44,452 nucleotides of DNA from an uncultured Christensenellaceae bacterium (GTDB taxonomy: Bacteria > Bacillota > Clostridia > Christensenellales > CAG-1252), in NCBI GenBank assembly GCA_964408255.1, contig CAYOYS010000002.1:7616-52067 (forward strand), written 5' to 3'. Positions 14,743-44,168 of this stretch are shown here, in pieces. Within the stretch, counting starts at the first letter, position 1; every line of letters starts with the position of its first letter. The notes beneath the pieces were generated by a model that saw nothing but the letters and a program-made list of their open reading frames with translations, ran no database searches and was not told where the DNA came from. Made by a program: the position numbers and the translations under genes.

Positions 14743-14917
14743 GTTGTTACGATACGATTTCGAACGGTGTCACAGTAGTTGTCACGGCACGATTTCGAAC
14801 GGTATCGCAGTAGTTGTCACGGCACGATTTCGAACGGTGTCACAGTAGTTGTCACGGCACGATTTCGAACGGTATCGCAGTAGTTGTTACGGTACGATTT
14901 CGAACGGTATCGCAGTA
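14743..14917. repeat. Tandem direct repeat, 5 x 35 bp, overlapping the last 10 codons and stop codon of gene 1
   Basis: u1 14743-14777 gttgttacgatacgatttcgaacggtgtcacagta; u2 14778-14812 gttgtcacggcacgatttcgaacggtatcgcagta; u3 14813-14847 gttgtcacggcacgatttcgaacggtgtcacagta; u4 14848-14882 identical to u2; u5 14883-14917 gttgttacggtacgatttcgaacggtatcgcagta. On the minus strand each unit reads T[AV][IT]PFEIV[PS] followed by TGA or TAA. Only u5 is in the CDS frame (ITAIPFEIVP-TAA, stop at 14889-14887). Every unit has a TTCGAA palindromic core. Confidence 0.95.
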
Positions 14918-20900: not shown

Positions 20901-23900
20901 CGGCATAATAAGTGCCGCCATTATAGGTCTGATTGATGCCCGAAAGGTTCCAATCTATCGGATAGTAGTCGGAGGATTGAGATGTGAATATCACATTACT
21001 GCGTACCGAATCCTCGGTCTGCGTGACATACAGCAAGTTGCCTCCGTTCTCAGGATAGTATATCTCATCGGTAGCGTTCTCGGTGTAGGGGTCGAACACA
21101 TAACTCGCCCTAACCTCTTTAAGGTTGATACTCGAAATCGTGCGATTCGCGATATTTATCGGGATGTTGACCGTTTGGTAACCGCCCGCCGCGTTGCCGA
21201 TAGTAAGCGCGGCATAATATATGCCTCCCATATAGTTGAGCTTGAGTCCGCTAGTCGCCCAAATTACCCCTCCCGTATTAAGATAGGTGTTGCCGTTGCT
21301 CGAAAGCTCTGCTTCGAATGTCTTTTGCGTACCGTTCTTATACATTGCGGTAACCGTCTTAGGATAACTCATGGCATCGAGCGGATTGGCAATCTTGTTG
21401 TTAATCATGTCCCATACCACCAAGCTCGACTGATATTTTGCAAGCTCGACGTCCGAAGTGATTTCGTTGCCGAACATATCGCGAGGCGCCTCGCCCTTTA
21501 CATATTTGCAGTAATTTATGATATTGCCTTCATTGTCCTTTTTGGTGTAGATAAAGTACAGTGGGTCAATATATGAAGCAAGGTCTGTCATCTCAAGGCG
21601 GGCGCTGTCGAACGTCGCGTCAATAATAGTTACAGGGACCTCGAGCGTCTGATAGCCCGCGTTCTCGATACGCGCCGTTTCTTCTTCCGTGTTGCCCGTT
21701 ATTCTAAAGGTCGCGCGCGAGGAAGTGTTGCCCTCATAAGTGTTGTTGACTCCCCTTAAGTTCCACTGTACGGGCGTCAATATATAATTGGGATTGCCCG
21801 AGGCGTCATCATCGCCCTCGTAATGCAACCAAAGATAGCTAGGATACATGTTAGGATTCTTACTGTCCGCAAGAGCCTCTTTGCCAATCATCACATAGCT
21901 ATATGGGTCAAAGGTCAAGTCAAGGTCGTAATATTGCCCCTGTGGATTCTTAAGCTTATAGTCCACAAGCATCCATGGCTTGATTATTATGGATATGCCC
22001 TCGAACTTGTAATACCCGATTTCGAGGTTGCCGATTTCTGCGCTTACCGTGTAGGTGATACCTGTGTAAGACGGCTTGATATCGCTTTCGCTTATGCTCC
22101 ATTTGATGTTGTAAAGCTTGGGCTCGGTGTTGCCGAAAGTCGCCCAAACTTGCTTAGGCAATTTAATCTCGTCGTATGGGTTGAAAATCAAGCTACTCGC
22201 GCCGTTCTCGTAAGTGCCGTCCTCGCTCGGGAATACAACCTTATTAAGTGCAAGGTTGCGCACGGTGATAGGTATCTCGACTTTATAACTCTTAACTTTC
22301 TTATCGCCGAATGTAAGACCTAGCACGAAGCTACCGCCCGAATACGAGTCTTTAAGTTGGCTAGTATCCCATTCGACAATGCTGTCGCCGGTGCCCTTTG
22401 TACCGTCGAACGTCTTGATAAGCTCATTTTTGCCGTAGCCGTCCGTCATCGTCACATAGATTATCTTAGGCAGGTTGGCAATTAACTCGTCAACCTTATT
22501 CGCATCGACAATCATAGGCAAAGTCAGACCCGCGCCCGCAATAAGCGGAACAACTACACTTCCTGTGCCGCTCGGCAAGGTCATGGTCTTTACGAGTCGA
22601 GCCGCGGAGTAAGGCAACTTGACATTGACCTTGTGAACGTCGTTCATAACATAGCCTTCAATCTGATAATTCTGGAATTCTGTCGCCTCGTTAACCATTG
22701 GCACAGGGCCTGACAAGCCCGCCGTCGGGTCGATAAGGAACATAGAATCCGCCCAAGACATGCTAACGTTATCGGTCTCCGTCTCACTGCCGGCAACAAC
22801 CGTCCCATTAAGATAGCGAGTAACAATCGCATTATCGGGCAGATTCTCCATGTAATCCACTATGCCGTTCTTGTTGTAGTCGAGCTCAAACACGTCGATT
22901 ATAGTTCTATCGTCAATGTTCTGACCGCTGCCTAATACAGGCGAAGAATTAACCACTGCCGCGAGCTTGATACCATTATTTTCAATCTTAATATCAAAAT
23001 ACTCGTTGCTTGTTTCGGTATAAGTCCTCAAATATACTTTTCTGAACATGCCGTAATCGCCGTTTGCAAGCTGCGTGTCATTTAGCTCGACGACTACAAA
23101 GCACACCGATTGGTCGGTTAATTCGGGGAAAGGCAACAACCGTGCAAGCAAATCGATAACAGTATTACCGACAAGCCCGTCGACTAGCCACTTGAGGAAA
23201 CCCGAATCGCCTATAAGTTTTTTCAGTATCGCCCTATACATCATATATGCTTGCTGATTGTTGGGCAAATCTCTCTCATATTTTAGTAAGCTAAATATCT
23301 TGGGCGGAAGCATAGCAAGCACACCGCCGATAAGCTTCGGATTAAGGTCTAGCCTTATAGTCGATATCGAAGGAGTGCTTCCGTTAGTGTCGACCTCGCC
23401 GCTTTTGCCGATGCCTGCCGAGCCGAGGTTGATAGTGATACCAAGAACAGGATTCTTGAGTCCTTCCGCTAAGTCATCCGCGGTTATTTTGCCGCTTCCG
23501 TCCTCTTCTTCTTCTACAAGCGGTGGTATGGGGTCGTAATCGGAGTTCACACTCATCTTAATAAGAGAGCGTATGTCAAGTTCGGCAACAGCAAAGGAAT
23601 ACTGCCCTATAAAGCCTAAATCTATATCAAGATACAGTTCGTTATCAAAGAACGATACACCCGATACAATGCCTCCGAGCAATGTATTTCCTAAGTCGAT
23701 TTTTAGTCCGTGTACATAATCACCGCTTCCGATTCTCGTTACCAATACATCGGTGGAACGACCCTTGCCCGTGACAACGCTGACGCCCGATTTGTCAACA
23801 TACGCAACATTAGTCATGATTGTGAGTTTCAAACCATCGCCCGCGGGATACAGTGCGTCAATCACCGAACCGAGTATGTTGGAGATACCGGGTTCCGAAT

Positions 23901-26900
23901 AATTGTTGGGCAAGCCGAACAAGCCGCCGAAGTTCAAGCCGCTGTAAGTACCAAAGTTAACGCCGCTCAATATATTGGTCACGCCCGCGCCGTAGCCTAA
24001 CTTCACTTCATCGAACACCAACTTGACATGATTAAGGTTGTTCATGCTAACTGTTCCCGAACTTTGAATGATGTCGTAAGCGCCTACATCGACGCTGAGG
24101 CTATCAAAGCCGTTGCAAAGGCTGAGGTCGAGCGCAAGTTTGACACCCTCGGGTACCTCAAAGTTAAGCCCGAGCATGCCTAGCAACATCTGAAGCATAG
24201 CAGTATCGAACTCAATTCCGACGTGAGTGCCTTGAATGTTATTTTTGATGTACGAGTTGATTATCATTTTTGCCGAGACCGCGCCTCTTATCACAGGGTC
24301 GGGGTCAGGGTCAGGGTCGGAATCATCATCATCCTCGATATCTCCGAACAAATCTTTCTCCTCTTTTTCCTCGAGCATCTTGTCGATAAGCTCACCGAGA
24401 TTAGAGACTCCGAGTCTAGATTCGAGCAAGTCGCTTACAATGCTCAATGAGCCGTCCAAATCCAAGCCGGCAAGCTCTTTAAGTATCGCCTTTATGTCCA
24501 GCCCCATAAGCTTGACTTTCATTAAGCCCATGCCCGAAAGGTCTGCATAGACGGAGTTATCTGCTGCACTGTAATACAGTCCTATCAATAACACATTGAT
24601 ACCGGATTCGCCCGTAAGCCTATAACCAAATTCGACCAATAGTTGTGTGTTTTCCCAATGTTCAAAGTCGATTTTTGCATCGATTCTGATACCGTATCTC
24701 CACTCGTCCGTGCAGTTGCGGTTGATGACAACTGCGCTCTTATCAACGCCCAACAAGTCCGCTACCGTGGATTCGAGGAAATCGACAAGCATATTGACTT
24801 TGCCGCCCTCGTCCGCCGTTGTCTCGAGAGTTATCGCGCCGTTAAGCGTCAGCCTGAATGCGTTTATGTCCAAGACGTTGGGATACTCCCCGAGATTGGC
24901 AAATATTGCTCTGTTGACAAGCGTTCCGCCTCCGTATTGGGATGCGCCTGTTCCCGACATGTGCGGGAATACAAGGTATGTGCCGTCTAAGCCGCCGATT
25001 CCGGATAAGTTGTTCTTAGTCAACTCCAACGCGCCGCCCGACTCGCCGAGCGCGATGTTCAAGCCGCCAAGCTTTATCTTCAAGCCAACCCAATCGAGGT
25101 TTGTCGTATCGAGTCCGGATTCGTTGCCGTTCTTATCAATATATAGATTTACATTGATGCTCGATTGATTGATAACGGTCTCACCCGGCTGAAGGTCGGA
25201 GTCGCCCGAGTCAAAGTAAACCTCTACTCTGTCAAAACTCTCGCGAGTGTTATCTCCCGTAATAATCTTAGGCAAAATGATATTGTCTACGCCCGCAAGA
25301 TTTAGAATCATATCGACAAGCGCAAAGTTCAAAGAAATACCATAGCGGTGCTGGCTTACAAGGAGCATGAACTCCGCGCCGTCTATTCCCTCGACTCCGT
25401 TAATCATGCCGATATAATCGTTTTTGATTTTTTCCATATCGAGTCCGAGCAAATCGGACAGCAATCCCCATTCGGAATCGTCCTCACCCGCTCCGGCAGT
25501 TTCGCCTGCTCCCGCCTTGCTTGCCCAATTGACACCGAGTATTCCGGCAAGTACTCCCGACAAGTCAATATCGGTAATCATCAAGCCGTCGATATCCATA
25601 ATCGGCAAAGTTAGGTAAAGCGATTCTGTCGCGTTGACATAGTATACACCGAGCAACAAATAGTGCTTGGTAGTTCCGCCTTGCTCGTATTCTTTGATTA
25701 TCTCGAGCAACAGTTCGGTATTGCGCGGCTCGGTAAGGTCGAGCATCGCTTCTATTTTGATTTTTAACCTCATATTCGTAGGAACATAAGACGAAGTGGC
25801 AGGATTATAAGTAGAGTTGTCGATTACGAGCTTGATAAGGTCACCCATGCTCGGATTCAACACGAGTAGCGAGGCAAGCGTAGGTGTCAAGTCGATGTCT
25901 ATGCCATTGTTTTCCCCGCTTGCGTTTGTGCCGCCGCTTAAGGTTATATACGAGGTCGTGGAAAGCTTGATTTGAAGCGCCTTGCTGTCTATCCATGACT
26001 TATGAGCATCGTCCTTATTAGGACGCAAATCAGCGGTAAAGTAGCTAGACTTAGCCAAAGTCGAGATAGGTGTCGCAGCGTCATATCCAATAGTGTAGTC
26101 ACTCCCGTTATCGGTTATTGTAAGCCCCTTGAATATGTTATTCTGCCCCATATGCAAATCGTCGAGATAAAGCGCCAATCTTTCCGCGTCGCTCAAAAGG
26201 TAATCGCTGTTGAGCCTTGCGGGGTACGCCACCGCCTTAAGGTCGGAAATAATCAATTCGGCTTTTACCGCGTGGTCTTTATCCTCAATAGGCATAAAGA
26301 CAGATAACTTAAGGAAACTGTCCTCAAAATTCCTCAATATTTTGCCTTGCAGATACATTTCGGTTTGCGGGAAGAACGCCTCGATAGTGAACATTGCAAG
26401 CAAATTGTTTATAATATCGGGGTTCATCAACAAAATCAGCATATTATTGCCAATACCGACGCTGTTGATTAGCTTGGGTAGCATCGAGGTCAAATCCAAT
26501 TCCCTTGCGTCCTCGGCGGGCGCGCTTTCCGTCTCGGGCGAGACGTACTCGGGGGCGGTTATAAAGGAGTTCATCCAATTCCTCATCTCGGTAATCAAGT
26601 CGAGCTTAATTGAGAACGCATCGATGCCTACCGAAGACAAATCGATATAAAGCGTGGAAAGCTCGCTACTGCCGCCACCGTCATAATATATGACTATGGG
26701 AGGCAATCCGGGATACTGCAACAGATGAATCTTAATAATAGCCTCGGTTAAGAATGGGTCGTCGGCGTTTATCTTGACTTCCACATCAATTCTTATAGTG
26801 GTGTCGATACCCGAGAACGCGACTACAGAGCCCGCAATGGTATTGATAAGCGAGCCAAAACCGCTAGTTACATTCGCCCCGAATAAATCAAAGTCGAAAG

Positions 26901-38900: not shown

Positions 38901-41900
38901 CGAAGCCGCCCAACCCTAATCCGAGCTCAAAAGCCTCGTTGAGGTCGCCGTCAAAGACGCTGAGTCCGATTCCAATACCGATATCCTTAAGGTTCAAATC
39001 AAGAGTAGCAATAATATCGGGAAGCTGTAAGCCCGACAAGTCAATCGCCAAAAGTGAAAGCGCCGCCGTCAGGAAGTTGCCCTTGGTCGCTATGCCGATT
39101 ATGCCGCTTTCGCCGTCAATGGTAACGGAGCCGAGAATAGCGTTGATAAGCGCCATGATATCAATATCAAGCGAGCTTTCTTCGACTTCGCCGCTCTCAG
39201 GCTCTACGGGCGTAGAAGTCGGTTCTTCGACTTCGCCGCCGATTAACGAGTCGATAAGATTTTTGACCGTATCGAGAACGCCCGTTCCTTCAATTTTGAA
39301 TTTCTTGGCGCCGATGCTCGTTAAGTCTATATAGAGCGCATCGTCTACACTGTCATAATATATACCAATTATCGTCCCCTCTATATTCGATATCTCTATC
39401 GCAAGGCGGCAATAATCAAAGTTCGCTATATCAAGATAGACTTTGAAACCTACGGTTACGGGCAAGTTGAGCAGTTCGCCAATGTCGCCTGTACTGCCAA
39501 TATAAATGGATAGTTGATTGAGAATCGAGACAATCGTGTCGCCGAGTCCTACCGCGCCTGCTATATGCGCAAGTGTCTCGGAAAGCGAAACATTGGGATT
39601 GCCCTCACTATCCACGCCAAAGACTCCGGTACGCAAATCGAGCGCAACAGTCGCCGCAAGATAAATTCCTTCTATCGCAAGCTTGCCCGTCTCATCGCTT
39701 ATCGGAATATATTCCAACTCCTCATGCGCGTTGGCGAACGCATACTGCGCGATATTTGAGCTGCCGAGCGAAAGCATTATGCCGTTGAGCCGCAAGGTAA
39801 GATTTACGCCCGCCGCGCCCAAGCCAACCGATACCGCGTAATCGGTGGTAAGTCCGACGCTTATCGAGTCCAAAAACTCGCCAAAATCCAAGCCGCCGAT
39901 GTCTATGCCAAGCTGTGCCAAAACATCAGCTATAAGCACACCCGAAATGATTACAGAGATGCTGTTTTGGTTAAGTTTGAGCGCGACAAGCTTTTCTCCG
40001 AGAGAGAGGGGCTCGCTCGCTCCCGCCGATTCCTCACTGTTGTTCAGCAAGCTTGAAAGCAGCGAGGATACATCAAGACCGTTGTAGCGCACCGCGCCCA
40101 CTCCGAATAAGGGCGCTTTTGCATAAACAGACTGCGATGACGCGTTGTAGTAGAGAAGCAACGCAAGACTCGTGCGGTTATGCGCGGCGTCCGTAACGTA
40201 CACCCTCAGCAATAGTTCGAGTTCGTCAAGAATGTTCAAAACGGTAGCACTATTGCTGAAATCTACCGCTTCGAGATTGATATTCGCCATAAGGTCGAAT
40301 GACAATCCAAGGTGTGCGGCTTGGGTAACCGATATGCCTATATCCGAGCCGGCAAGCAATGCTTTCACCAAGTTTTCGAGCGTTGCTCCTTGGTCGCCCG
40401 AATTGAACGCATCGAGATGCAAATCAATCTCGCCGGTAAGCGCAAGTCCCACCTCGTTAAGCGCCGCAAAATCAAGCTCGGGATAGTCCGCGACTGCGTC
40501 CAAGCCAAGATTTTGCTTTTCAAAGCTCGCGCTTATCTTATCAATACCAAAAGATATGTAGTTATTATCATCTTTTGAAAGCTTAATCCCCACGCCTACA
40601 CCGTCAATAAAATTGACATAGCCTTCGGGAGTCAGCTTGTCAAATATGTCGCCAACATCGTAGCCAAGTATTGCAATTAAGGTCGAAAGCGCGGTGTTGG
40701 AAAGCGCAACGCCCACTCCTCGCGCGTTGATGTTGATTGCGCTCAATATGCCGATATTGGACAAAAGTGTATCCATTATTCCGTCAAGCGCTCCGTCCTC
40801 CGCCGCCGCCTGCTCATCGAACAAGCCCGAGAGAAGGTCTCCCACATAGAATTTCATATGCGGAAGGTTGAAGCCCTTGACGCCGTTTGCGGTAATTGCA
40901 CCAAAAGAAGCGTTGATATATACATATGCTCCGTCAAAATACAATGTAAGTATGCTGTCTCCGTTCATAAGTATTTCGGCTTTGAGCTCCATTCTGCCCA
41001 ATATATCGTTCAAATCGATATTTGCGCTGATTTTGAGTCTGAATTCTCCGGAAATATCGCCTTCCACAAGAATATCAAAAATCAATCCGTCGAGAAGCTC
41101 CGCAATACTGTCGGGCAACACGCTTTCCGCAATGCCCAAAAGCGCGGCAAAAGAGGGTCTATCAGCTTGCCGATTGTCTTCCCACGCATATTCCAATAAA
41201 AGCTCGGTCGAAACATAAATCTCTTGAATTGCAGTGACATCGACATAATCGTCTTGCCAAGCCACCGATGCCGGCAGAATCTGCCGTTTTTCAAGCGCAA
41301 GCACAAAGTTGTGGATGCGCACAGAAAGATAGGGATTGACATAATCGGGTGTGCCGTCAGAGGTGTCGAGAGCAACAATCAGACCCAGCTCAAGCCCCTC
41401 CGAGGTCTTTATGTAGACCTTGCTACTTTCGTCAAGGCTAATAATCCCGTCCGCCTCAGTACCTAAAAGCAACTCAAAAACGGTAGCAATAAGTCTTTCG
41501 CCGATATATACTGCCGCCTCGTTCTGGTCAAGCGAAATGCCGCCCAAAACTCCGCCCAAAATTTTGATAAGAAGCTCGGGGGTCATTTCGCCGTCCTCTG
41601 CGCCGGATAGCGTGGAGGGAATAGCGCTAGCTAAAGCCTCATCGTCAAGCAGCCCTCTCAGCATGTCTTCAAGGTTGATTTTGTACATAAATTTGGGCAA
41701 TCCGACGCTGCCGTCAATAGAAATGCCCGACGCATCCACGAATATCGCACTTTCGTTGGGAGCGTATTCGCCATAATAAATCGCAAGTATCTGATGTGTG
41801 CGGTCACGGAATCCTCTATCGTATACTCTTACTGCAATCTCGATTTTGCCCAGGTCGATATTGAGTCCGGCTCCCGCAATAATGTCGGATAGCTTGAAGC

Positions 41901-44097
41901 CGTCAAAGCCGACGTTGACATCAAAAACAATGTCAAAACCGCCGTCAAACGGGTTCTTTACATTCAAAACGCAAGCAAGCTCGGCAATAATACCGCCGAG
42001 CGCGTCGTATAGGTCAAGCGAAGTAAGGCTACCTGAGTTCATGTCCACCGAAAGTTCGGCAGAAAGACTTACCGCGGATAAAGAATCCAAGTCGAGATAG
42101 GAATTCTTATTGAGGGTATCTACATTGATTGCGAACTCGGGTCTTAAGCCCAATGTCGCTTTGGGCATCTCAAGCTTGAGCGAAAGATTGTCATTGAGCT
42201 TGAGTCCGACGTCCAAATAAACGCCGAACTCACCCTCAAGCAGTCCGATTTCAAGACGAATCTCTCTCAATATGATATCTTCATCAGAATAGGTTGTGAC
42301 TAGACCGCCAAGGATTGCGTCAAAAATAGACATCGTTGTTTCTGCAGAGGCAATTGCCGCGTCCAATTCCGCAATTTCGCCCGCTGTCATTCCCGTCCTT
42401 TCCGTCGCGTTAAGTTTGTCAAGGTTCTGCTTTTGCGTATAGCCGATACCGTTAATCAGCGTCTTAAGCGTGGCTCTGTCAAGGGTAACCGCAAGCGCCG
42501 TTCTGCCGTTCGGACCCTTTTCAAGTGTGCCGAGAATCGCTACTATGAGTTTCATAGTATCAAGTTGGACATAAGTAACGTTGCTCGCCGCGGAAACCTC
42601 GAAAGTAGCGGTTCTTGCATAATTCGCAATAGCCTCGTCGAGATTTGAGCCGCCGTAAGCTGCTATCATACCCGCTTCCGCCGCCTCGCCCGCCTCGCCG
42701 GTCAAAAGTCCGCCGAGCAATCCGCCCAACAGATTGTTGAGAATACCCGAAAGGTTGATACCGCCGTATTTTAGCTTGGGCAACCCAATAGGAGACAAGT
42801 CGACGAGTATCATCTCGTCCCTGCCTCTATACGCGATATTTGCGACTGCCCCGCCCGAAAAATCGGACAGAGTAAGCAAGATAACGTTCGAAGAATTATT
42901 CGCAAAGTCAAGCGCGACTTGAAGTCGTCCGCTAAGTCCCATGGAGGATTCTCCGAGACTTATCGTCTTGCGCCCGAGGTCACCGAGGTCGTCAACGCCG
43001 AACAATAGCGCAAGAATTCCGCCGATAGTGTCGCCGACTGTAACCGTCTGCGCCACTTTATTCTCGTACATTAAGTTAAACTCTATATCAAGATTAAGCA
43101 CACTGAAAGTCTCGTAATCGGCAAAGCTCGGGAATGCGATATCGGGCATCGCATACCTATCCGTGCCGTAGTATTCTGCACCCGCTTTGACTCCCAATCC
43201 AAAAATGCCCTTGCCGTAGCTCGCGTCAAGGCTCATATCGGAAAATACACCATTCTCGGTTCGGATACTGAAATCAAGCGCGATTTTATCCAAAGGATAA
43301 CTAGTAATATTCGCAAGTCTTAGTCCGAAAACGGGATACAGGATATCGTCGAGATTTATTCCCAAAAATGTAGGGATTATCGGAGCGACTGTCTTAAGTA
43401 TATTGAACATTCCGGATATAAAAGTGGAAATGTCAGTCTCAACATAAAGCTCCTCTGTTGTGCCGGTGGTGGTCAGCGTCGCAGTCTTAATAAGACCGCT
43501 CAAAACGCCCGAAAGCATTGAGCCGAGATTTATCCCGGCGACATCAAGCGTCTCTATCTTCTCGACAACTCCGCCGAGCATGCCCGTTGCCGAAGAGGCG
43601 AGTTGTACGATTTGCTGAAGGTTGACTTCTTTGATTAAAAGGTTGGGGCCGTTTTCACCCGCGATATCGAGATAGAATTTACCCGCATCATAGTAAAGTC
43701 CAAGCACGGTATCGTTATTGACGCTTTCTTTCAATTCGAACAAAATATCAGATTTTGTGTCGTCAATACGGTTATATTTCGCTTTGAAATTTATGTAATA
43801 CTCTCTTGTCTCGTCGTCGATTGTCAACGACAGCCGTTCGGATTGAAAGCTGAACACAAGATACTCTTCATTCTCGTCAGATGAGAGCGAGTCGGATGCA
43901 AATGCTATCACATATTGCAAAAATTCGAAAAAATCGCTTGTGTCGAGCGTCTCTACAACCGATGTCGTCCCATTATGGTTGGTGTCCGCGCCCGGTTTGA
44001 TTATTATCGGGTCGATGTTTTTACAAGCGACAAGCCCGAATGTTGCCAAACATATAATTGTAATCAAAATTGTCAGAAAAACGATGCGTTTATTCAT
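14887..44097 (-). CDS. Giant (9,736-aa) predicted surface lipoprotein: ~21 novel ~270-aa modules + ~20 Ig-like (Big_4-like) repeats + MBG-like C-terminal domains
   Basis: The ORF track gives one open frame of 29,211 nt. The ATG at 44097-44095 is preceded by GGAGGT (44107-44102). I re-derived the C-terminal codons ...ITAIPFEIVP and the TAA stop at 14889-14887 from the DNA. In-frame spot translations at 42.72, 41.64, 40.83, 39.24, 38.40, 36.48, 35.94, 30.42, 22.86 and 16.02 kb match the supplied protein. Confidence 0.97.
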   Translation of the reverse strand: MNKRIVFLTILITIICLATFGLVACKNIDPIIIKPGADTNHNGTTSVVETLDTSDFFEFLQYVIAFASDSLSSDENEEYLVFSFQSERLSLTIDDETREYYINFKAKYNRIDDTKSDILFELKESVNNDTVLGLYYDAGKFYLDIAGENGPNLLIKEVNLQQIVQLASSATGMLGGVVEKIETLDVAGINLGSMLSGVLSGLIKTATLTTTGTTEELYVETDISTFISGMFNILKTVAPIIPTFLGINLDDILYPVFGLRLANITSYPLDKIALDFSIRTENGVFSDMSLDASYGKGIFGLGVKAGAEYYGTDRYAMPDIAFPSFADYETFSVLNLDIEFNLMYENKVAQTVTVGDTIGGILALLFGVDDLGDLGRKTISLGESSMGLSGRLQVALDFANNSSNVILLTLSDFSGGAVANIAYRGRDEMILVDLSPIGLPKLKYGGINLSGILNNLLGGLLGGLLTGEAGEAAEAGMIAAYGGSNLDEAIANYARTATFEVSAASNVTYVQLDTMKLIVAILGTLEKGPNGRTALAVTLDRATLKTLINGIGYTQKQNLDKLNATERTGMTAGEIAELDAAIASAETTMSIFDAILGGLVTTYSDEDIILREIRLEIGLLEGEFGVYLDVGLKLNDNLSLKLEMPKATLGLRPEFAINVDTLNKNSYLDLDSLSAVSLSAELSVDMNSGSLTSLDLYDALGGIIAELACVLNVKNPFDGGFDIVFDVNVGFDGFKLSDIIAGAGLNIDLGKIEIAVRVYDRGFRDRTHQILAIYYGEYAPNESAIFVDASGISIDGSVGLPKFMYKINLEDMLRGLLDDEALASAIPSTLSGAEDGEMTPELLIKILGGVLGGISLDQNEAAVYIGERLIATVFELLLGTEADGIISLDESSKVYIKTSEGLELGLIVALDTSDGTPDYVNPYLSVRIHNFVLALEKRQILPASVAWQDDYVDVTAIQEIYVSTELLLEYAWEDNRQADRPSFAALLGIAESVLPDSIAELLDGLIFDILVEGDISGEFRLKISANIDLNDILGRMELKAEILMNGDSILTLYFDGAYVYINASFGAITANGVKGFNLPHMKFYVGDLLSGLFDEQAAAEDGALDGIMDTLLSNIGILSAININARGVGVALSNTALSTLIAILGYDVGDIFDKLTPEGYVNFIDGVGVGIKLSKDDNNYISFGIDKISASFEKQNLGLDAVADYPELDFAALNEVGLALTGEIDLHLDAFNSGDQGATLENLVKALLAGSDIGISVTQAAHLGLSFDLMANINLEAVDFSNSATVLNILDELELLLRVYVTDAAHNRTSLALLLYYNASSQSVYAKAPLFGVGAVRYNGLDVSSLLSSLLNNSEESAGASEPLSLGEKLVALKLNQNSISVIISGVLIADVLAQLGIDIGGLDFGEFLDSISVGLTTDYAVSVGLGAAGVNLTLRLNGIMLSLGSSNIAQYAFANAHEELEYIPISDETGKLAIEGIYLAATVALDLRTGVFGVDSEGNPNVSLSETLAHIAGAVGLGDTIVSILNQLSIYIGSTGDIGELLNLPVTVGFKVYLDIANFDYCRLAIEISNIEGTIIGIYYDSVDDALYIDLTSIGAKKFKIEGTGVLDTVKNLIDSLIGGEVEEPTSTPVEPESGEVEESSLDIDIMALINAILGSVTIDGESGIIGIATKGNFLTAALSLLAIDLSGLQLPDIIATLDLNLKDIGIGIGLSVFDGDLNEAFELGLGLGGFGIAFCEPQGILPSDTASYCDWTDLNFGFEARAQAEFAIDSAYAAAINQYIAEQVVGQSFELFVKDNASGDTLVARLGFDFAFNVHLESLIDTRIELFMSVYYMSAGGELFANDNRLITVYYNSHDKLDAATNSYVESLYFIYGNTDASEGKAVRIDNLGIIELVLNLLGSPASSAPAASSAPAAAAENESPLSPIISLLVSDGLVVGVNGGVISYLLEVLGLSVLLPPLEGVSVTVSADLMQLSLDFNENSHLALRLEDYALIFKDSLAELPRYGAPITSMRDTATGLQDLGQLYFSTSMSVKLGLAELDGTEELVRYANYQNVLQLLLTADSDREYYYGVDIELGISGLDLTNLSIDAYTGSNLADNIDSIIDKMRLELLVMIRDKNVTEETTDGITTEYPEGKPVIGIYYLSDVTDVIYIHVPALELKLAIRNALDLREILYNLLSSVNTAAASEPESADGFGVLQIIKFLERVRLTESAVTVELSSQILSRAILLAGIDLSLPEINTLIGLGTLGDIFSGGETYIQSGIGIHVNTLFNEGYAIDIAIGDFVLEFREDLLPVLIEIDANNPEAADEAGNFFGFLSEYVGLDSIQAYISLSVDLEFGIAANNNPNDTNALRFEKLLDEFLGASDFEINITDILSGCYRLTIEASFNFAEGANHLYGLSLYMSLYEVGEDASGETLEKIMSIYYSRGTLGINLEGLLGVEPFQLDLDLGELLGGLFASEASDIDYAEASGDIVGIDGGITGLLNSISGVCGIYIGDEDIALTISGEILGTVLVMLGYNDYLPSIAKGVTLKNSDEMNELSDGTYTAEITDTEGGAHSFAFTKSIIRNKYSLALGTANIIRITLSGNGIDTILNSESAWSKYFIINRADGTIEFANTAEFNALPLGGYTVSVQLDNGTEPSVFSMDKSIKIYTYDSIDLTTFEIESITIKQGANIVATLASGAEWGKYFAINPTGGEFRVALGSSTGMYFALKEDTYFKVTLKELVFKGKYQEIEKRESYISNIEYLSVSTALEVDIHADAGINYAVNDMLGSVLSSLMDGALAELKIELDINEIIGMNYLVMLQANIRVDQYAEIPVDLGGSEFAIQVYEVDSTGATKVLGNLKFAFYYVGTEADGVIYVNIPYFDLMLKIDEIAFSSLIDNLLKSLLNLGGDEIAGAGEANALDMGGILGLFTGLTLNNSGAQIGFAGDMFNAALSLAGMNDLNMPAVKADTSKLSVYLDGAPTVTIDKGGKLLEYTKFIDLLIDFDVPPSGVDVFSAYINFVLYNTEIGFNRAISYDVPLGYYQSLTEAKALFFKLSGTVELDTPIDNSINLQGLGELFGIESELALNIAASYQRLDFNLEMNIGLGGDNIAELGKSGGLSLDELLINLVQDLYLYFDIVRTVQAGDYHEQNTLLELYYYNNYIYADLSALGLPKLAIEISLSDLLKILFGSTTGGETAGAADDALNIAFNPEGLCVGASVNFIDYALGLLGVNLDAMFTLNALVSLNPVNEGDPIIRLDFGAVGGNVPNGEGGYSDVTTLSMSINKPVLSLGGHITKTVDDAADYAFVNSLEFIHLSADATIEIAIDAVDENNAYYLTDLLQSLFVNEEDRIPVILTGNVRKTLGISFAVNISLVDISMSELYISVCEIVKTGSLTNREEMITLFYDGNGYLYISAPILEDNLNIRIEFDIASLLSGTGLQEMLDNLNIADMIYSLIYGENYAAETSDVSPAENDNNNIFELVTAIVSSLNLTDSGEFVIKFTTTIFHEISERFLGGIGLDMPSLKALDVRFDFFNTNFGIDMVWNKKPGTENDPRFKLDISNYSFRGTKQEIAFDGNRYNTTDDFKHLSIKASGRLDYDFADGLYSIGGLFETLIPGLNIPVTMQGIDGFFEVILEAKIGIVNIMDSEVNLSIYYPSNDPDNPNLLLSVYFDIYRGEIYIDIPWFDVPKILIAGIDLSSLLKDALAETEESGAADLGDAGNYLLLVGRVINKIIISDGSDNYAEGLHIVYNNDMLELILGELLSEIQLVLPVQITDMATIFSISDQYISFNAEFVNNNELPDGGQNPETAGYVSFLGELNTIEFNDTSIRPERTQDVTEYKSIYDFNMPTGDNLMLENIYFESKFYLDAEMKEQSLDLQALLMYILSEDFTLDITDYIDLRFEVELKANLNLKNIGRSELMLKIILIEYPDTVNEKKALFVRAYYVGLDNALYLDAPMIGLYNIKVALNLGELLSGITDTATAMDMTPEEENIWRAELISGMFDNILITKNGITITSSYSFLANVFEIMMKEVLPFEDTPFTRLKLVINLLERDPVTNAILPFFHNSETGESNFNAKLMLEVYDRSMIYEDGVLKDPLPEEAKSVIEMGMGDMMFVAGKQHIDFFEIDTASGNEKDTGAEKMDYQLFSEMSKLTFNLRIQFEESPGSVDYFADIGKVLNALFPGLEAMATFTTKTFETNMVFTLNVSASIDLNNLSDSEIFISLIEGGAINGTVERRMGTIYYNGPDNGTLYIDMPALNVNKIKYVGLDLAALLPANGLDSLFSGGSNTSSAEDGDNDEGVFLEDFNATFKTIFKNISRITVSQSAGVQISIKTALISIFAQALGYNVDVDALDEIGELKVGLRLSVEDGLGINLQASLDAVDGTQPPFFRISIDGIGLKLSKDTLTIPADIASQLANYSELTLDSKIALSISGQFDGRSEAGIYSLTNVISSLLEENIDFALGFEDSSISLQFNLLLNVDLGTIFNSFGGLNSLDINTLLLNNEILLEIIDVTDPMIPSLLLSVYVTDGIAYVNIGILKSAPPIKLDLISLIGMGREITDEETPGQSHAESAQYNSEMHVDYASTTPQLISATRIYHYLEGESYYLVDLSNTSIDTIRLVNEDETVTLTSEEWNEYFNIVEKNGLTYFYFTEFARTQSGDNKLTPVNGILFYDLELLSFITRTQSTDDTLTLNLVEREIISVTLRTSPEADGVTLTSPEEWNQFISMQGVAASTTISLNSTAIGLGYTHLTVVTSNIIPSIIRSTNQYKMALKGATIQKVEFYKSSVFPIPDEAFATANGATEIAKYFTMATRGNVTYIAFNNTDEVRALNENGKYFEIRIYTSQGVLYMDSTISKKFVLDKNDSDGILYLILSLFGGIMATQDVSTLMLNNNTLMIIEEFFGIPLKGTSADEGYISVRLQNTLTKGGNFALSNVTSDITYEVEGLSAATVAKAVISNAVYDAELEFTGGDIADYFIIADNFVTVRNSDKVKKLNSGTWSFALYDASETMLYQNTFNKSVQAIGVIGVKYEELTFTIGLNNYSAKVGAENLLDYTSPVNNIVTKKVDGVTVIDDGEYSDIINDLNEVYVSTIIDFAIDIPANNISSLDDMFNPGGSLYNVGDNIASYIGNVLLALGFNREMLTGDYRLHLRVYLGSLDFANLALSDIKIYIKLEKRCYNIMLDGILYDDAFVDILTIYYDGANIFLNPNLETFRFLTAPPVYIAVQGSLEFWGITSEELAAASTPSRLVEDFAAAEDSFSIAGLINLLAGVTIGQGTVAMNLGKNFIGGLFAMIVPDMDEIEIEIDKFDLVVDVFNGAVTLDIAKYTKYNPSEAFLNTDGEPYEDYRTFILDDDVAKLFVTAQAMRNYPISDWTVTMYYEDGSTADFSLSFNGSGGSFSYGAKSGTFVASGNAPAELTGIYADFAAGKAISKIVMAVSQIDYLKAGAGTNPYFCFDIKEGELCLSDKINSMSTCGIFKLSLYNGANVLLGTLSLNRMSLVPTVTYDGVTTPIRYFDDCLCLDNYHLKANVTLSNIAKIRVEYDSDDMIYLSSFITDGDKLKIPKNLFDRFMDGEFKLALFGAGNVTLATIDLDFTGSTALASYGGETVSVYYYNGYAVIAIPSLAADIELSSVTRIGFAVADNILVRIALDNQGYNTQALIFRATIGEVELAFELPDRFKTQAQGGIAENGVYGSGGPYHANDEYKHYNVGIIASTRGLELSEFQRWNDLEFYIKTSIEFTYQLDTFDFDLFGANVTSGFGSLINTIAGSVVAFSGIDTTIRIDVEVKINADDPFLTEAIIKIHLLQYPGLPPIVIYYDGGGSSELSTLYIDLSSVGIDAFSIKLDLITEMRNWMNSFITAPEYVSPETESAPAEDARELDLTSMLPKLINSVGIGNNMLILLMNPDIINNLLAMFTIEAFFPQTEMYLQGKILRNFEDSFLKLSVFMPIEDKDHAVKAELIISDLKAVAYPARLNSDYLLSDAERLALYLDDLHMGQNNIFKGLTITDNGSDYTIGYDAATPISTLAKSSYFTADLRPNKDDAHKSWIDSKALQIKLSTTSYITLSGGTNASGENNGIDIDLTPTLASLLVLNPSMGDLIKLVIDNSTYNPATSSYVPTNMRLKIKIEAMLDLTEPRNTELLLEIIKEYEQGGTTKHYLLLGVYYVNATESLYLTLPIMDIDGLMITDIDLSGVLAGILGVNWASKAGAGETAGAGEDDSEWGLLSDLLGLDMEKIKNDYIGMINGVEGIDGAEFMLLVSQHRYGISLNFALVDMILNLAGVDNIILPKIITGDNTRESFDRVEVYFDSGDSDLQPGETVINQSSINVNLYIDKNGNESGLDTTNLDWVGLKIKLGGLNIALGESGGALELTKNNLSGIGGLDGTYLVFPHMSGTGASQYGGGTLVNRAIFANLGEYPNVLDINAFRLTLNGAITLETTADEGGKVNMLVDFLESTVADLLGVDKSAVVINRNCTDEWRYGIRIDAKIDFEHWENTQLLVEFGYRLTGESGINVLLIGLYYSAADNSVYADLSGMGLMKVKLMGLDIKAILKELAGLDLDGSLSIVSDLLESRLGVSNLGELIDKMLEEKEEKDLFGDIEDDDDSDPDPDPDPVIRGAVSAKMIINSYIKNNIQGTHVGIEFDTAMLQMLLGMLGLNFEVPEGVKLALDLSLCNGFDSLSVDVGAYDIIQSSGTVSMNNLNHVKLVFDEVKLGYGAGVTNILSGVNFGTYSGLNFGGLFGLPNNYSEPGISNILGSVIDALYPAGDGLKLTIMTNVAYVDKSGVSVVTGKGRSTDVLVTRIGSGDYVHGLKIDLGNTLLGGIVSGVSFFDNELYLDIDLGFIGQYSFAVAELDIRSLIKMSVNSDYDPIPPLVEEEEDGSGKITADDLAEGLKNPVLGITINLGSAGIGKSGEVDTNGSTPSISTIRLDLNPKLIGGVLAMLPPKIFSLLKYERDLPNNQQAYMMYRAILKKLIGDSGFLKWLVDGLVGNTVIDLLARLLPFPELTDQSVCFVVVELNDTQLANGDYGMFRKVYLRTYTETSNEYFDIKIENNGIKLAAVVNSSPVLGSGQNIDDRTIIDVFELDYNKNGIVDYMENLPDNAIVTRYLNGTVVAGSETETDNVSMSWADSMFLIDPTAGLSGPVPMVNEATEFQNYQIEGYVMNDVHKVNVKLPYSAARLVKTMTLPSGTGSVVVPLIAGAGLTLPMIVDANKVDELIANLPKIIYVTMTDGYGKNELIKTFDGTKGTGDSIVEWDTSQLKDSYSGGSFVLGLTFGDKKVKSYKVEIPITVRNLALNKVVFPSEDGTYENGASSLIFNPYDEIKLPKQVWATFGNTEPKLYNIKWSISESDIKPSYTGITYTVSAEIGNLEIGYYKFEGISIIIKPWMLVDYKLKNPQGQYYDLDLTFDPYSYVMIGKEALADSKNPNMYPSYLWLHYEGDDDASGNPNYILTPVQWNLRGVNNTYEGNTSSRATFRITGNTEEETARIENAGYQTLEVPVTIIDATFDSARLEMTDLASYIDPLYFIYTKKDNEGNIINYCKYVKGEAPRDMFGNEITSDVELAKYQSSLVVWDMINNKIANPLDAMSYPKTVTAMYKNGTQKTFEAELSSNGNTYLNTGGVIWATSGLKLNYMGGIYYAALTIGNAAGGYQTVNIPINIANRTISSINLKEVRASYVFDPYTENATDEIYYPENGGNLLYVTQTEDSVRSNVIFTSQSSDYYPIDWNLSGINQTYNGGTYYAVAQVGSKDAGYQNIRHEVVIQPKIIKSVQLEAFVFDPYNTEHTPFLKDTEYDGAGNVVKQSPYPKTAMVRFTDDSNYTFSGIRWDLTSLYAIWNCVGGETFITAKIGNDYGGYQNVQIKVTVENKEITDYELNELNTIIFDPYAGIDPRLNAAYPELVDVVFKNGNKGEVNIIWDINNVINGYKGYKSKAGDSLFQEFIIFGNVGNSSVGYQTKEITVRVLNREIESIIPVEITIDPFSSDSLPTVVTVQFKDGSTRSMPVEWIGKNYDLKVLNASSEGEYVSGTVNARIGDYIGGYQTKVIPISVIKKTVTSLTNGNEIVSLRVGTGENEALTTDTFVYYVDGIKYTRSVYIEIDPWEDTTKLVYATVIGEGLDAETYISYNDMPSRFNTSFLQDGTQRNLKAIWDYSYIEGCNYEGKEFYSGLNNNTKGAILTLGNSTVGYFELEFKVRVISRKVRSLDNNPLIYTFDALDETGNPVNPRLLTNIVDDAYNTSSYPNQLWFEFVVTEGGVSDGIAKIVSWVKRGDSASITLGNSKYDYQTFNYSVMKVERDVTIDSETLIAIDPYNVSLPDSLTVKIGAAKVWEVDSYRVVTPEEYPDCAGKDLMLKADWSKADINYHYTVSGIEQTVNVYVGDDNTGIKAVEVKVVIMERIVIAVEKDEFEVDPYDYAALPSEISVLYENGMSGYLELQANLMNATKVTEAEAAFYGIPVNNNEFFYQGGYYILNASVGTRRGGYQNVRLLLKVANRTIRGVTSSRLLNDKGEFEQKITPYGGTNGATTLPSNVIDVEFFDKDASGSYIRGTLSVLWSYANINYHYKGGSSKAFVLIGNAQGGYQKVEVNIVIHRMVATRADAYDANGNTYYYNPYDANCPLPSHVGVYFNDGGVTARMEVLECIVDRSSIKYNSDTVIAKIRVGNERSGYQWINNVPLNVTDMTVVSYDPTYLTVNPYSAGLNVASDLTILNANGTPLQIRAYYGDGSKSLMFNVRLKEAFVYACDYDGIFDAKNFKVNVEIGNSVGGYQSTFLVEGEPTPITVNINVVSESIVKLYVGAQEFATHYGLESPIHPYAPPAFALGYISVELEGGAVLNTGYGIEIKSVVYTDTDNNVINVLGYIGGQIRVRVEVGNAKAGYKYIYYDCTLAKKEIDTVAFDNKWVDPYVYVLPETLLVTYKTGGTEALPVEFYYAGTDTRFTDDMVNYTGGSFNLEARIGTALGGIQKFSYKLNVSQKIISTLNNIELLQIDQFLKELNLPSGSFTVTFEDGTQRVFEVDTAKIRYAADGVVGFSFANAKVGAWDFSEVSLDLKGGLYNAKLTLGNSIGGTQTVQVPVKVRKKTVNTANMQYVVSKTAQKIIVDDLSDRLEIGLGEYFNLPNYLWLLYSDGTAIDVMVEWNFDNIAHDGLGNYRYGNYEVSTVVFGQKIAVTVIVTADRLVLGDNLQDFYSVKRGSTIEYPDSIKQIVVKKDGASFVLDDTPYFDVVWSDRPYLAIEDTYLMKGTINCGSMTWVRDVEVQVYSSYINHIESVSADVELPVGGELTASMFPTIAVNVAKGKTTVSKTVRANWVLVSRIYNGVTTPYAGLSENDFGAADTAMIGAKYVFEPRIYDRNGNIAKLADGTTLIYTVTISGNVAEIEAKVHFFRDMFGEQATEFIYAYGKSKHVGFACDEGVAVTAIEYFRITLVEGVAVYESVKLVEYNADGSIANETGVGIGLLNAGDYQVRVYVEGFNILGDKVLEHTIEFGYIIEKLDIGDMIVVADTTQAYEENASGVPVEKMILANVQGGLATVSVEYYDGETLLATPPSAVGLYTAVVTVNSANYKGTRSVPFRIIAPIVIKVAGEPDVVIYDGMYLKAYDLPGGSSVCPNDYFALRWYYTKDGTDYPLILSKPIKLGMCEYTDGAYTLVLKAGLLIAYKESVDESNTEFNSVEGNVSYVKLDFDASLFTNVKIKYYLGTTLIAQVEYKDGVAETSEDLPSVAGMYSVTIEYSGEFFSGSITAIPFEIVP
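14890..15995 (-). other. C-terminal region with three MBG-like (Y-x-G ... AG-x-Y-x-V ... NY-x-G ... F-x-I) domains; no LPXTG, no terminal TM helix
   Basis: aa ~9,369-9,736. Motif strings: 'LNAGDYQVRVYVEGFNILGDKVLEHTIEFGYIIEK', 'VEYYDGETLLATPPSAVGLYTAVVTVNSANYKGTRSVPFRIIAP', 'VEYKDGVAETSEDLPSVAGMYSVTIEYSGEFFSGSITAIPFEIVP'. The call rests on motif-level resemblance to MBG (YGX-type) domains of large adhesins; no HMM was run. Confidence 0.45.
15996..22890 (-). repeat. Array of ~20 diverged ~95-130-aa Ig-like repeats (Big_4-like) with an [IV]-G-[ND]-x2-[GS]-G-Y-Q signature
   Basis: aa ~7,070-9,368. Each unit follows the pattern ...[IV]DP[YF]...LP..V.V.[FY].[DN]G.....V.W......Y.GG.Y.....[IV]GN..GGYQ..V.V.V..[RK]. 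Examples: 'IDPFSSDSLPTVVTVQFKDGSTRSMPVEW...ARIGDYIGGYQTKVIPISVIKK', 'LTIGNAAGGYQTVNIPINIANR', 'AKIGNDYGGYQNVQIKVTVENK', 'ASVGTRRGGYQNVRLLLKVANR', 'VLIGNAQGGYQKVEVNIVIHR', 'VEIGNSVGGYQSTF', 'LTLGNSIGGTQTVQVPVKVRKK'. The 'LP.TV.V.y.DGs...v.V.W' core is the hallmark of bacterial Ig-like group 4 domains. Confidence 0.6.
22846..22881 (-). other. Single EF-hand/dockerin-like Ca-binding-loop motif DYNKNGIVDYME at the junction of module array and Ig array
   Basis: aa 7,073-7,084, verified from the DNA (TTT GAG CTC GAC TAC AAC AAG AAC GGC ATA ...). It fits D-x-N-x-N-G-x-V-D-x-x-E but fails the last position of the PROSITE EF-hand pattern (N instead of a hydrophobic residue). Confidence 0.3.
24295..24342 (-). 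repeat. Hyper-acidic linker DIEDDDDSDPDPDPDP including an in-frame hexanucleotide (GACCCY)x4 repeat
   Basis: aa 6,586-6,601. Plus strand: agggtc ggggtc agggtc agggtc (24295-24318), then gga and atc x4. It is preceded by EEKEEK (24355-24375). Confidence 0.9.
27345..28090 (-). other. Insertion cluster 3: ~250 aa of small beta-sandwich-like domains interrupting one scaffold module
   Basis: aa ~5,337-5,585: 'NYPISDWTVTMYYEDGSTADFSLSF...TNPYFCFDIKEGELCLS...GIFKLSLYNGANVLLGTLSL...LSSFITDGDKLKIPKNLFDRFMDGEFKLALFGAGNVTLATIDLDF'. This module is ~0.6 kb longer than the 0.8-kb base period. Confidence 0.5.
29075..29350 (-). other. Insertion 2b: single ~90-aa beta-sandwich-like domain
   Basis: 'ALSNVTSDITYEVEGLSAATVAKAVISNAVYDAELEFTGGDIADYFIIADNFVTVRNSDKVKKLNSGTWSFALYDASETMLYQNTFNKSV'. 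It shares the [DE]-x-x-x-YF-x-I signature with the other insertions. Confidence 0.45.
29535..30405 (-). other. Insertion cluster 2: ~290 aa, about three ~95-aa beta-sandwich-like units with a W-x-[EQK]-[YF]-[FI] signature
   Basis: aa ~4,565-4,855: 'VTLTSEEWNEYFNIVEKNGLTYFYF', 'VTLTSPEEWNQFISMQGVAASTTISL', 'NGATEIAKYFTMATRGNVTYIAF ... GKYFEIRIYTSQGVLYMD'. It lies directly after the linker at ~30.45 kb and before a normal anchor A ('ILYLILSLFGGIMA...EEFFGIPL'). Confidence 0.5.
35900..36500 (-). other. Insertion cluster 1: ~200 aa, two ~95-aa beta-sandwich-like units with the same W-x-K-Y-F signature
   Basis: aa ~2,535-2,732: 'LSDGTYTAEITDTEGGAHSFAF...ITLSGNGIDTILNSESAWSKYFIINRADGTIEF...GGYTVSVQLDNG' and 'ITIKQGANIVATLASGAEWGKYFAINPTGGEFRV...TYFKVTLKELVF'. 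Both boundaries were verified by in-frame translation at 36480 and 35940. Confidence 0.5.
44023..44097 (-). other. Lipoprotein (SPase II) signal peptide with lipobox L-V-A-C; lipidated Cys25 predicted
   Basis: MNKR (basic), then IVFLTILITIICLATFG (hydrophobic), then LVAC|KNIDP. The Cys25 codon TGT at 44025-44023 was checked in the DNA. Confidence 0.8.
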
Positions 44098-44139: not shown

Positions 44140-44168
44140 ATTTTACTAAAGTAAATGATTAATGTCAA
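44140..44168 (-). promoter_or_regulatory. Near-consensus sigma-70/SigA promoter: -35 TTGACA (44168-44163), 17-nt spacer, -10 TAAAAT (44145-44140)
   Basis: The minus strand reads TTGACA-TTAATCATTTACTTTAG-TAAAAT-GGTAGTAG. The predicted TSS is ~44133, giving a ~35-40-nt leader to the ATG. The promoter lies in a visibly AT-rich 355-bp non-coding region. Confidence 0.65.

Follow-up and report, generated by a model that had tools for sequence, protein, structure and literature searches.

Three groups of described proteins come closest to the one considered here. RTX adhesins such as MpIBP, LapA and SiiE are extended by BIg-like modules of ~100 amino acids (aa); a C-terminal RTX signal directs them to a type I export system, and they are held in the outer membrane. 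Ebh, a staphylococcal protein of ~1 MDa, forms a long rod of all-helical FIVAR-GA modules (~126 aa each) with a C-terminal transmembrane anchor, whereas TamB, YhdP, VPS13 and ATG2 are long, N-terminally membrane-anchored proteins dominated by amphipathic β-strands, with bacterial members below 1,500 aa. Here, we analyze a stretch of 44,452 nucleotides from an uncultured Christensenellaceae bacterium of the Clostridia (assembly GCA_964408255.1, contig CAYOYS010000002.1, positions 7,616 to 52,067; hereafter the window), whose two giant genes, both on the minus strand, together occupy the entire 44 kb. One of them encodes a 9,736-aa protein, most of which is an array of a ~270-aa repeat module. 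On balance, this array probably serves as the extender, or stalk, of a giant lipid-anchored lipoprotein, in which α/β modules and acidic spacers would hold an adhesive tip far from the cell.

The giant protein shares with the RTX adhesins its very great length, an anchor at one end, tens of tandem β-rich modules, putative ligand-binding domains at the far end, and a strongly acidic composition. It differs from them in its module, which is ~270 aa long, predicted to be α/β and devoid of detectable Ig (immunoglobulin) similarity, in its Sec/lipoprotein signal and lipid anchor, and in its host, which presumably (this is an assumption) has a single membrane. Like Ebh, it would be a giant Gram-positive surface protein, made mostly of one tandem module and anchored in the membrane rather than through LPXTG; unlike in Ebh, its modules are β-rich and twice as long, and its lipobox is N-terminal. 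No match to the FIVAR, GA, RTX or LolA-clan families was obtained in Pfam scans. Because module, export route and anchor all differ, the giant protein is not a member of the RTX-adhesin or Ebh families. With TamB, YhdP, VPS13 and ATG2, it has in common its length, a membrane-anchored N-terminus and the dominance of amphipathic β-strands; it departs from them in three predicted helices per unit, disordered acidic spacers, a lipobox, an Ig-like far end and the lack of any family or structure match, and its ~6,900-aa array is several times longer than the bacterial AsmA-like proteins. By analogy, its function would resemble that of giant-adhesin extenders—a familiar architecture of anchored repeats and a binding tip, built from a new module—with no unusual mechanism shown so far.

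The repeat array was delimited with a profile of 212 units, all taken from other proteins and independent of the units of this one (the foreign profile). It extends over aa 71-6882, with 20 units preceded by an N-terminal half unit, and accounts for ~70% of the protein. A profile of the protein's own units, cut at their YY...LY[IV]D anchors, returned 23 domain matches over aa 77-6886, in what is a circular test. When 17 clean units were compared, one at a time, with a profile made from the remaining 16 (leave-one-out), their scores ranged from 19.5 to 90.4 bits (E 4e-08 to 1e-29), whereas shuffled controls (20 shuffles per unit) reached 11.8 bits at most. Unit starts are spaced 245-429 aa apart, with a mean of 293 aa (~0.88 kb) in the regular part, in agreement with the ~0.8-kb periodicity that a preliminary description, made from the DNA letters and their open reading frames (ORFs), had noted. 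That description placed about 21 copies of the module at 22891-44010, which corresponds to aa 30-7069, and took them to form a ~7,000-aa scaffold. The units do form the ~6,900-aa body of the protein, and the copy number holds as 20 units plus the half unit; aa 6883-7069 contain no unit, and aa 4569-4852 and parts of units 10, 17 and 18 are foreign to the module. The gene and the parts of its product are as follows (window coordinates; bit scores and E-values of units refer to the foreign profile).

14887-44097, minus strand: giant ORF, intact, 9,736 aa, encoding a lipoprotein signal, the half unit, 20 units and a C-terminal Ig-like array (ORF list and translation)
44023-44097, minus strand: lipoprotein signal peptide, aa 1-25, MNKRIVFLTILITIICLATFGLVAC, with lipobox L-V-A-C (from the sequence)
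43552-43887, minus strand: half unit, aa 71-182, matching profile positions 165-250 only, the C-terminal half (independent E-value, i-E, 6.6e-10; 3.1e-11 with a C-half profile)
30394-43533, minus strand: units 2-16, aa 189-4568, a contiguous run of 15 full units, 249-329 aa long (48.8-140 bits each)
28498-29541, minus strand: unit 17, aa 4853-5200, degenerate, with a nested insert at ~aa 4905-5007 (i-E 1.1e-05)
26503-28362, minus strand: unit 18, aa 5246-5865, degenerate, split by a nested insert at ~aa 5312-5699
23452-26502, minus strand: units 19-21, aa 5866-6211, 6225-6565 and 6607-6882 (109.9, 125.3 and 36.0 bits)
22798-23451, minus strand: junction between unit array and Ig-like array, aa 6883-7100, without a significant unit match
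14890-22797, minus strand: C-terminal region, aa 7101-9736, with ~18 Big_4-like ~100-aa repeats and a weak MBG_3-like end

Unit 10 is longer than the other contiguous units (aa 2478-2910) owing to a nested insert, and unit 18 is recognized through its N part (aa 5250-5311, 2.8e-05) and its C part (aa 5700-5836, 6.2e-11). The units are 14-23% identical to a reference unit, and DNA-level repeats are absent from the unit-array region; for both reasons, the duplications that gave rise to the units are old, and the array is no assembly artefact. No column is invariant across the 17 units. The two conserved anchors that had been described on either side of each linker are nonetheless genuine family features: both are present in the consensus of the protein's own units, and the family-wide consensus of the 212 foreign units carries the first as '...ll~iYy~g~~~~lYvdl~~lg~~k~kI~~idl~~li' and the second as 'i~~il~~lg~~~~lp'. 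A stand-alone half unit opens the array here, and a comparable one lies at ~aa 75-200 in many homologues, which suggests that the C-terminal half of the module folds independently. Two other ways of parsing the unit were rejected: a circularly permuted domain, with the acidic linker as an internal loop (N-half profiles match nothing beyond aa 6720), and an internal duplication into two halves or five-strand sub-repeats (hhalign self-comparison gave no off-diagonal match, with a probability of 0.2%).

Searches for a known domain were carried out at the levels of sequence, profile and predicted structure. Scanning the whole protein in four pieces against Pfam (E≤1) recovered nothing in aa 1-7100 except a chance match to Ntox25 (E 0.15), and the 17 single units yielded only two chance matches at E≤10, each in one unit. 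Nothing relevant to the module was found in NCBIfam at E≤0.1, and no family in the homologues P0001, P0012 and P0021. Against PDB sequences, the best match of a one-unit profile had an E-value of 0.066, in a set of mutually unrelated matches, and a two-unit profile had no match at E≤10. Foldseek comparisons of the one- and two-unit models, which have a mean predicted local distance difference test (pLDDT) score of ~65, with the PDB and BFVD returned none at E≤0.001 and template-modelling (TM) scores of at most 0.32. Profiles of AsmA, AsmA_2, TamB, DUF748, DUF3971, Chorein_N and related families gave no match even at E≤10, and among the PDB matches listed by Foldseek (50 per search), none is described as TamB, VPS13, ATG2 or Lpt. 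Rfam had no match across the window. A phage origin was considered and rejected: none of 50,697 phage records was matched by four units in tblastn, and the Foldseek search of BFVD gave nothing. A literature search by accession numbers and descriptive terms found no description of the module family; a survey of giant genes covers other Clostridia giants, with RCC1, Listeria-Bacteroides repeats or dockerin, and not this module (bioRxiv 10.1101/2023.11.21.568195). By these searches, the ~270-aa module appears to be a previously undescribed domain family, outside Pfam and NCBIfam. The preliminary description had likewise left it unassigned, a view borne out by the absence of significant matches in Pfam, NCBIfam, PDB sequences and Foldseek and by the statistical support for its periodicity.

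Word-indexed homology searches with the unit alignment or a four-unit query found nothing. Exhaustive comparison of the profile with 1.84 billion cluster representatives, in contrast, retrieved 95 proteins at E≤0.001, 35 of them at E≤1e-30, so that the profile search proposed in the preliminary description did define a family, with its relatives in metagenome-assembled genomes (MAGs) of Clostridia and Bacillota. Almost a quarter of the proteins retrieved (23/95) have lengths of 5,600-7,900 aa and match the profile in 12-15 stretches, or show 9-14 units at a stricter threshold. Relatives that carry a name are all annotated as 'hypothetical protein' from Clostridia, Clostridiales, Eubacteriales or Bacillota MAGs, with the one exception of a carboxypeptidase-regulatory-like domain. 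When one genome per species was scanned with the single protein, only one orthologue was recovered (67% identity, in a Clostridia MAG). Altogether, ~840 copies of the module were collected from ~150 proteins. As far as sampled, the family is confined to uncultured Clostridia. Among 24 large homologues with a signal-like N-terminus, 22 have a lipobox pattern ([LVI..][AST..][GASC]C), and the other two have A-F-A-C and M-F-A-C in the same place; Big_4 was detected in the C-terminal parts of P0047 and P0089, where these were scanned. Lipobox, half unit, unit array and Ig-like array thus constitute a conserved architecture.

To characterize the fold, we generated AlphaFold2 models of one unit (from an alignment of the 17 internal copies; pLDDT 64.9, predicted TM-score (pTM) 0.49) and of two consecutive units at aa 3456-3984 (33 rows, including 22 diverse homologue unit pairs; pLDDT 65.5, pTM 0.41). 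Both show the same order of elements: a post-linker helix, two short strands, and a second helix ending at the LG-x-D...LP anchor; then about four strands, a variable low-confidence loop in which the nested inserts are sited, a 14-residue strand and a short helix; and finally hairpins with YY...LY[IV]D (pLDDT 80-90), an amphipathic helix (DL-x2-LL-x2-L) and the acidic linker (pLDDT <50). The module is predicted on these models to be α/β, with ~10-12 antiparallel strands and three amphipathic helices, in two of which the leucine-rich anchor motifs lie. Family-wide column statistics show strands in strict hydrophobic/polar alternation, often with acidic residues on the other face, and helices with an i/i+3/i+4 hydrophobic pattern. 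Conserved positions are nearly all occupied by residues of the hydrophobic core type (L, I, Y, G), and seldom by polar ones that would suggest a site. Mean-field covariation over 842 units (effective number 389) robustly recovers three hairpins (columns 227/235, 198/215 and 180/200); apparent non-adjacent pairs such as 132/236 are near noise level and are not relied on.

At the boundary in the two-unit model, a helix at 228-236 is followed by residues below pLDDT 50 (237-251) and a further helix at 249-260. Since pTM is 0.41 despite sub-parts at pLDDT 80-90, AlphaFold2 finds no confident fixed packing between the two modules. Predicting consecutive units had been proposed as a way to see whether they stack; in this model of moderate confidence, whose coordinates were not inspected, the boundary does not look continuous. 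Covariation across the junction reached a top z of 4.0 for adjacent units versus 4.3-5.4 for non-adjacent controls from the same proteins, a test without power either way. The weak top Foldseek matches are antiparallel sheets with or without covering helices, namely the MICA/MHC-I platform (E 0.004-0.02), LolA3 and porins. LolA3 (9tp6) was matched by the two-unit model at E 0.015-0.11 (prob 0.92, TM 0.18-0.32, rmsd, the root-mean-square deviation, 12-16 Å), which is not significant, and was not among the 50 matches listed for the one-unit model. As a weak lead, LolA resembles the modelled unit in its ~240 aa, its ~11 antiparallel strands plus helices, and one hydrophobic sheet face, possibly covered by helices; the differences are that this non-significant match comes from a model with a pLDDT of 65 and that LolA-like proteins are single-domain carriers, not tandem arrays. 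These matches are taken to describe the general character of the models, not homology.

The spacers between the units differ from the modules in composition and in evolution. Each of the 20 inter-unit boundaries is net negative (-1 to -12) and rich in A/S/G/E/P/D/T, which upholds the 20 acidic linkers of the preliminary description, with a clear low-complexity stretch of these residues at 11-13 of them. Compared with an orthologue (L001, 66% identical), 8 of 11 internal insertions or deletions (indels), including the largest (12 aa), fall at unit boundaries, where identity drops to minima of 0.33-0.53 against a mean of 0.66. In this sequence comparison, the linkers are the fastest-evolving and most indel-prone segments, and their indels and low identity would fit unconstrained spacers. 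Other, non-unit sequence occurs both between and within units:

35866-36498, minus strand: nested insert in unit 10, aa 2534-2744, replacing the variable middle of the module (profile alignment interrupted; no Pfam match)
29542-30393, minus strand: inserted non-unit segment between units 16 and 17, aa 4569-4852 (no unit-profile or Pfam match)
about 28777-29385, minus strand: nested insert in unit 17, ~aa 4905-5007, interrupting the unit
about 27001-28164, minus strand: nested insert in unit 18, ~aa 5312-5699, interrupting the unit

By eye, the segment at aa 4569-4852 consists of about three ~95-aa β-rich stretches. None of the four inserts has a Pfam match, and they show no significant mutual BLAST similarity. 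Extra domains between modules and in their variable middle are as expected for a modular chain. As an observation by eye, all four look like β-rich domains of ~95-100 aa with a recurring '...Y-F-x-I... G-x-[YF]-x-[LF]-x-[LI]-[YF]'.

The N-terminus of the giant protein passes a pattern test for lipoproteins that asks for positive charge in the n-region, hydrophobicity in the h-region and, ~15-35 residues from the start, a lipobox [LVI][ASTVI][GAS]C; as read from the sequence, it is a cleavable lipoprotein signal with lipobox LVAC, not a transmembrane helix. The C-terminus (...SITAIPFEIVP) shows neither LPXTG nor a hydrophobic tail, as judged by eye with no dedicated motif search, and the same reading of the printed 25-residue tails of the large homologues, again with no dedicated search, revealed no LPXTG or hydrophobic C-terminal tail. 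With both lacking by this reading, the N-terminus is apparently the sole anchor. The scaffold (aa 30-6882, window 23452-44010) has a net charge of about -576, with 14% D+E versus 5.7% K+R and ~0.2% Cys; the C-terminal Ig-like region is far less acidic (net charge -114). In the latter, Big_4 (PF07532) was identified at E 2.2e-23, with 82 bits against a cut-off of 22.1, so that the gathering score was passed. Pfam itself marks only three stretches, while a self-profile recovers ~18 Big_4-like copies at aa 7208-9162 (window 16612-22473), which share the motifs [FIV]DP[YFW] and GGYQ. The final ~570 aa (window 14890-16611) differ and match MBG_3 at E 0.0023, under the curated cut-off. An NCBIfam 'MiiA motif' match, also under its cut-off, was seen at aa 7979-7992 (window 20122-20163).

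Upstream of the gene, a GGAGG ribosome-binding site was read 7 nt ahead of the ATG, and a consensus scan located one further feature:

44140-44168, minus strand: promoter-like site, TTGACA, 17 nt, TAAAAT, with 11/12 consensus matches (a consensus match only)

Downstream lies the second giant ORF (window 3-14645, minus strand), which runs off the window end and encodes at least 4,881 aa with a signal/anchor-like N-terminus, at least 10 modules with F-x-G-x-F-D-G-x-G-x-x-I, and 27 GG[IVLF][AVI]G motifs; in Pfam, it has only sub-threshold Glug matches (E 0.011). In the locus of a distant family member (L003, 1-32477), three giant genes stand head to tail (products of ≥5,138, 4,158 and ≥3,529 aa), and the gene directly downstream of the family member is a homologue of the second giant (33.7% identity over 3,153 aa), so that the giant pairing is conserved in at least one distant lineage. 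Because the neighbor is a giant exported repeat protein and the pair recurs in a distant relative, a surface-structure locus is suggested. In another locus (L004, 7803-28055), the giant pairing is absent: the scaffold gene (3,758 aa) comes after the genes of a two-component system (response regulator and histidine kinase) and before a distinct gene for an MBG-domain protein (2,254 aa). As scaffold and MBG protein are here encoded by separate adjacent genes, the parts of the family can evidently be split across genes. A 35-bp tandem repeat (14743-14921; 5.1 copies, 91% matches) extends over the end of the giant ORF, stop codon included, and fills the gap to the second gene. Its first copy encodes the last ~11 aa (ITAIPFEIVP*), its period is not divisible by 3, and a role in regulation or recombination is conceivable.

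How might such a protein work? In the reading that we favor, it would be exported through Sec, lipid-modified at Cys25 and tethered to the outer face of the cytoplasmic membrane. Next would come the half module and then the 20 complete α/β modules of ~270 aa, linked through short low-complexity spacers of acidic character, in an anionic chain that carries the ~18 Big_4 domains and the MBG-like end, the presumed binding part, well beyond the wall, with a reach past it that we roughly estimate at ~100 nm or more. The stalk hypothesis of the preliminary description, as far as the role is concerned, fits the conserved architecture of lipobox, unit array and Big_4. Separate modules with spacers are favored by the boundary indels, by the helix/low-confidence/helix junction and by the tolerated extra domains, evidence that does not tell how stiff the chain is. 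What we only infer is that the protein sits on the surface, that the array acts as a stalk and that adhesion is the end function, along with how flexible or rigid, and how long, the chain would be. Two considerations weigh against the stalk. The module is modelled at a pLDDT of only ~65 and has no Foldseek match, so that it may have a specific activity of its own. A passive spacer, moreover, would not obviously require a 270-aa module when 100-aa Ig-like domains suffice in most known giant adhesins.

In another reading, the modules would themselves be the working parts, a ~21-module array binding polysaccharide, host glycan or a hydrophobic ligand along its whole length. The large module (270 aa) speaks for it, as do the best-conserved motifs, kept across copies of 14-23% identity, and the weak likeness to folds of a sheet plus helices that present or hold ligands, with the MICA/MHC-I platform at E 0.004-0.02 and LolA3 at prob 0.92 and a target TM of 0.31. 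Those fold matches are not significant, however, with TM-scores of 0.1-0.3 and rmsd of 12-23 Å, and the hydrophobic, core-type rather than polar character of the conserved positions, with no invariant column in 17 units, speaks against binding by the modules; we consider such an array unlikely. The genomic setting, in turn, raises the idea of a structural coat, sheath or matrix, akin to an S-layer (surface layer) or capsule scaffold and built together with the downstream giant GLUG-like protein, rather than an adhesin. Giant exported repeat genes do stand in tandem, two here and three in L003, the second gene is conserved beside a distant homologue, and the negative charge of the giant protein is extreme. 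Yet no SLH, CWB2 or other wall-binding domain was matched in the Pfam scans, the pairing is lost in L004, and Big_4/MBG arrays are typical of adhesin-like proteins, so that we hold a coat to be improbable.

A role in moving hydrophobic cargo would take one of two forms. In a repeating β-groove, the strands of successive units would join into one sheet whose hydrophobic face carries lipids or other cargo off the membrane, as the preliminary description had envisaged. The strands reach 14 residues with strict hydrophobic/polar alternation and a polar or acidic other face, the N-terminus would sit at the membrane, and the weak LolA3 resemblance is to a lipid-binding fold. A continuous groove is nevertheless very improbable: profiles of AsmA, TamB, DUF748 and Chorein have no match at E≤10, and no bridge protein is among the Foldseek matches listed; each unit has three predicted amphipathic helices, and the junction reads helix, low-confidence linker, helix at low pTM; linker length varies between close orthologues; a lipobox takes the place of a transmembrane helix as anchor, and an Ig-like array that of a membrane-binding element at the far end; and neither five-strand sub-repeats nor an internal duplication could be detected within the unit. 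The groove proposal is thus without support, a weak negative in that the models are moderately confident and their coordinates were not inspected. Alternatively, LolA-like half-barrel modules, each with a helix-covered hydrophobic pocket, might form a ~21-module lipid-anchored chain that relays or stores lipids, lipoproteins or other hydrophobic cargo outside the cell, at the surface of a single-membrane bacterium, which we regard as the least probable of these proposals. If true, modules binding hydrophobic cargo would be of much higher interest, and a LolA-like relay would be a new way of moving hydrophobic molecules over ~100 nm, mechanistically unlike the continuous-groove bridge proteins.

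The stalk of a giant lipid-anchored lipoprotein, the reading we prefer, bears on the giant surface proteins, a class that ranks with the most poorly understood gene products of uncultured Firmicutes from gut and rumen. For the module family, boundaries, a consensus and an architecture of lipobox, array and Big_4 are now defined, with no detectable relative among solved structures. A solved structure of the module is likely to bring to the repertoire of bacterial extender modules either a novel fold or a known fold put to new use, and would allow the annotation of thousands of kilobases of 'hypothetical' sequence in Clostridia MAGs.

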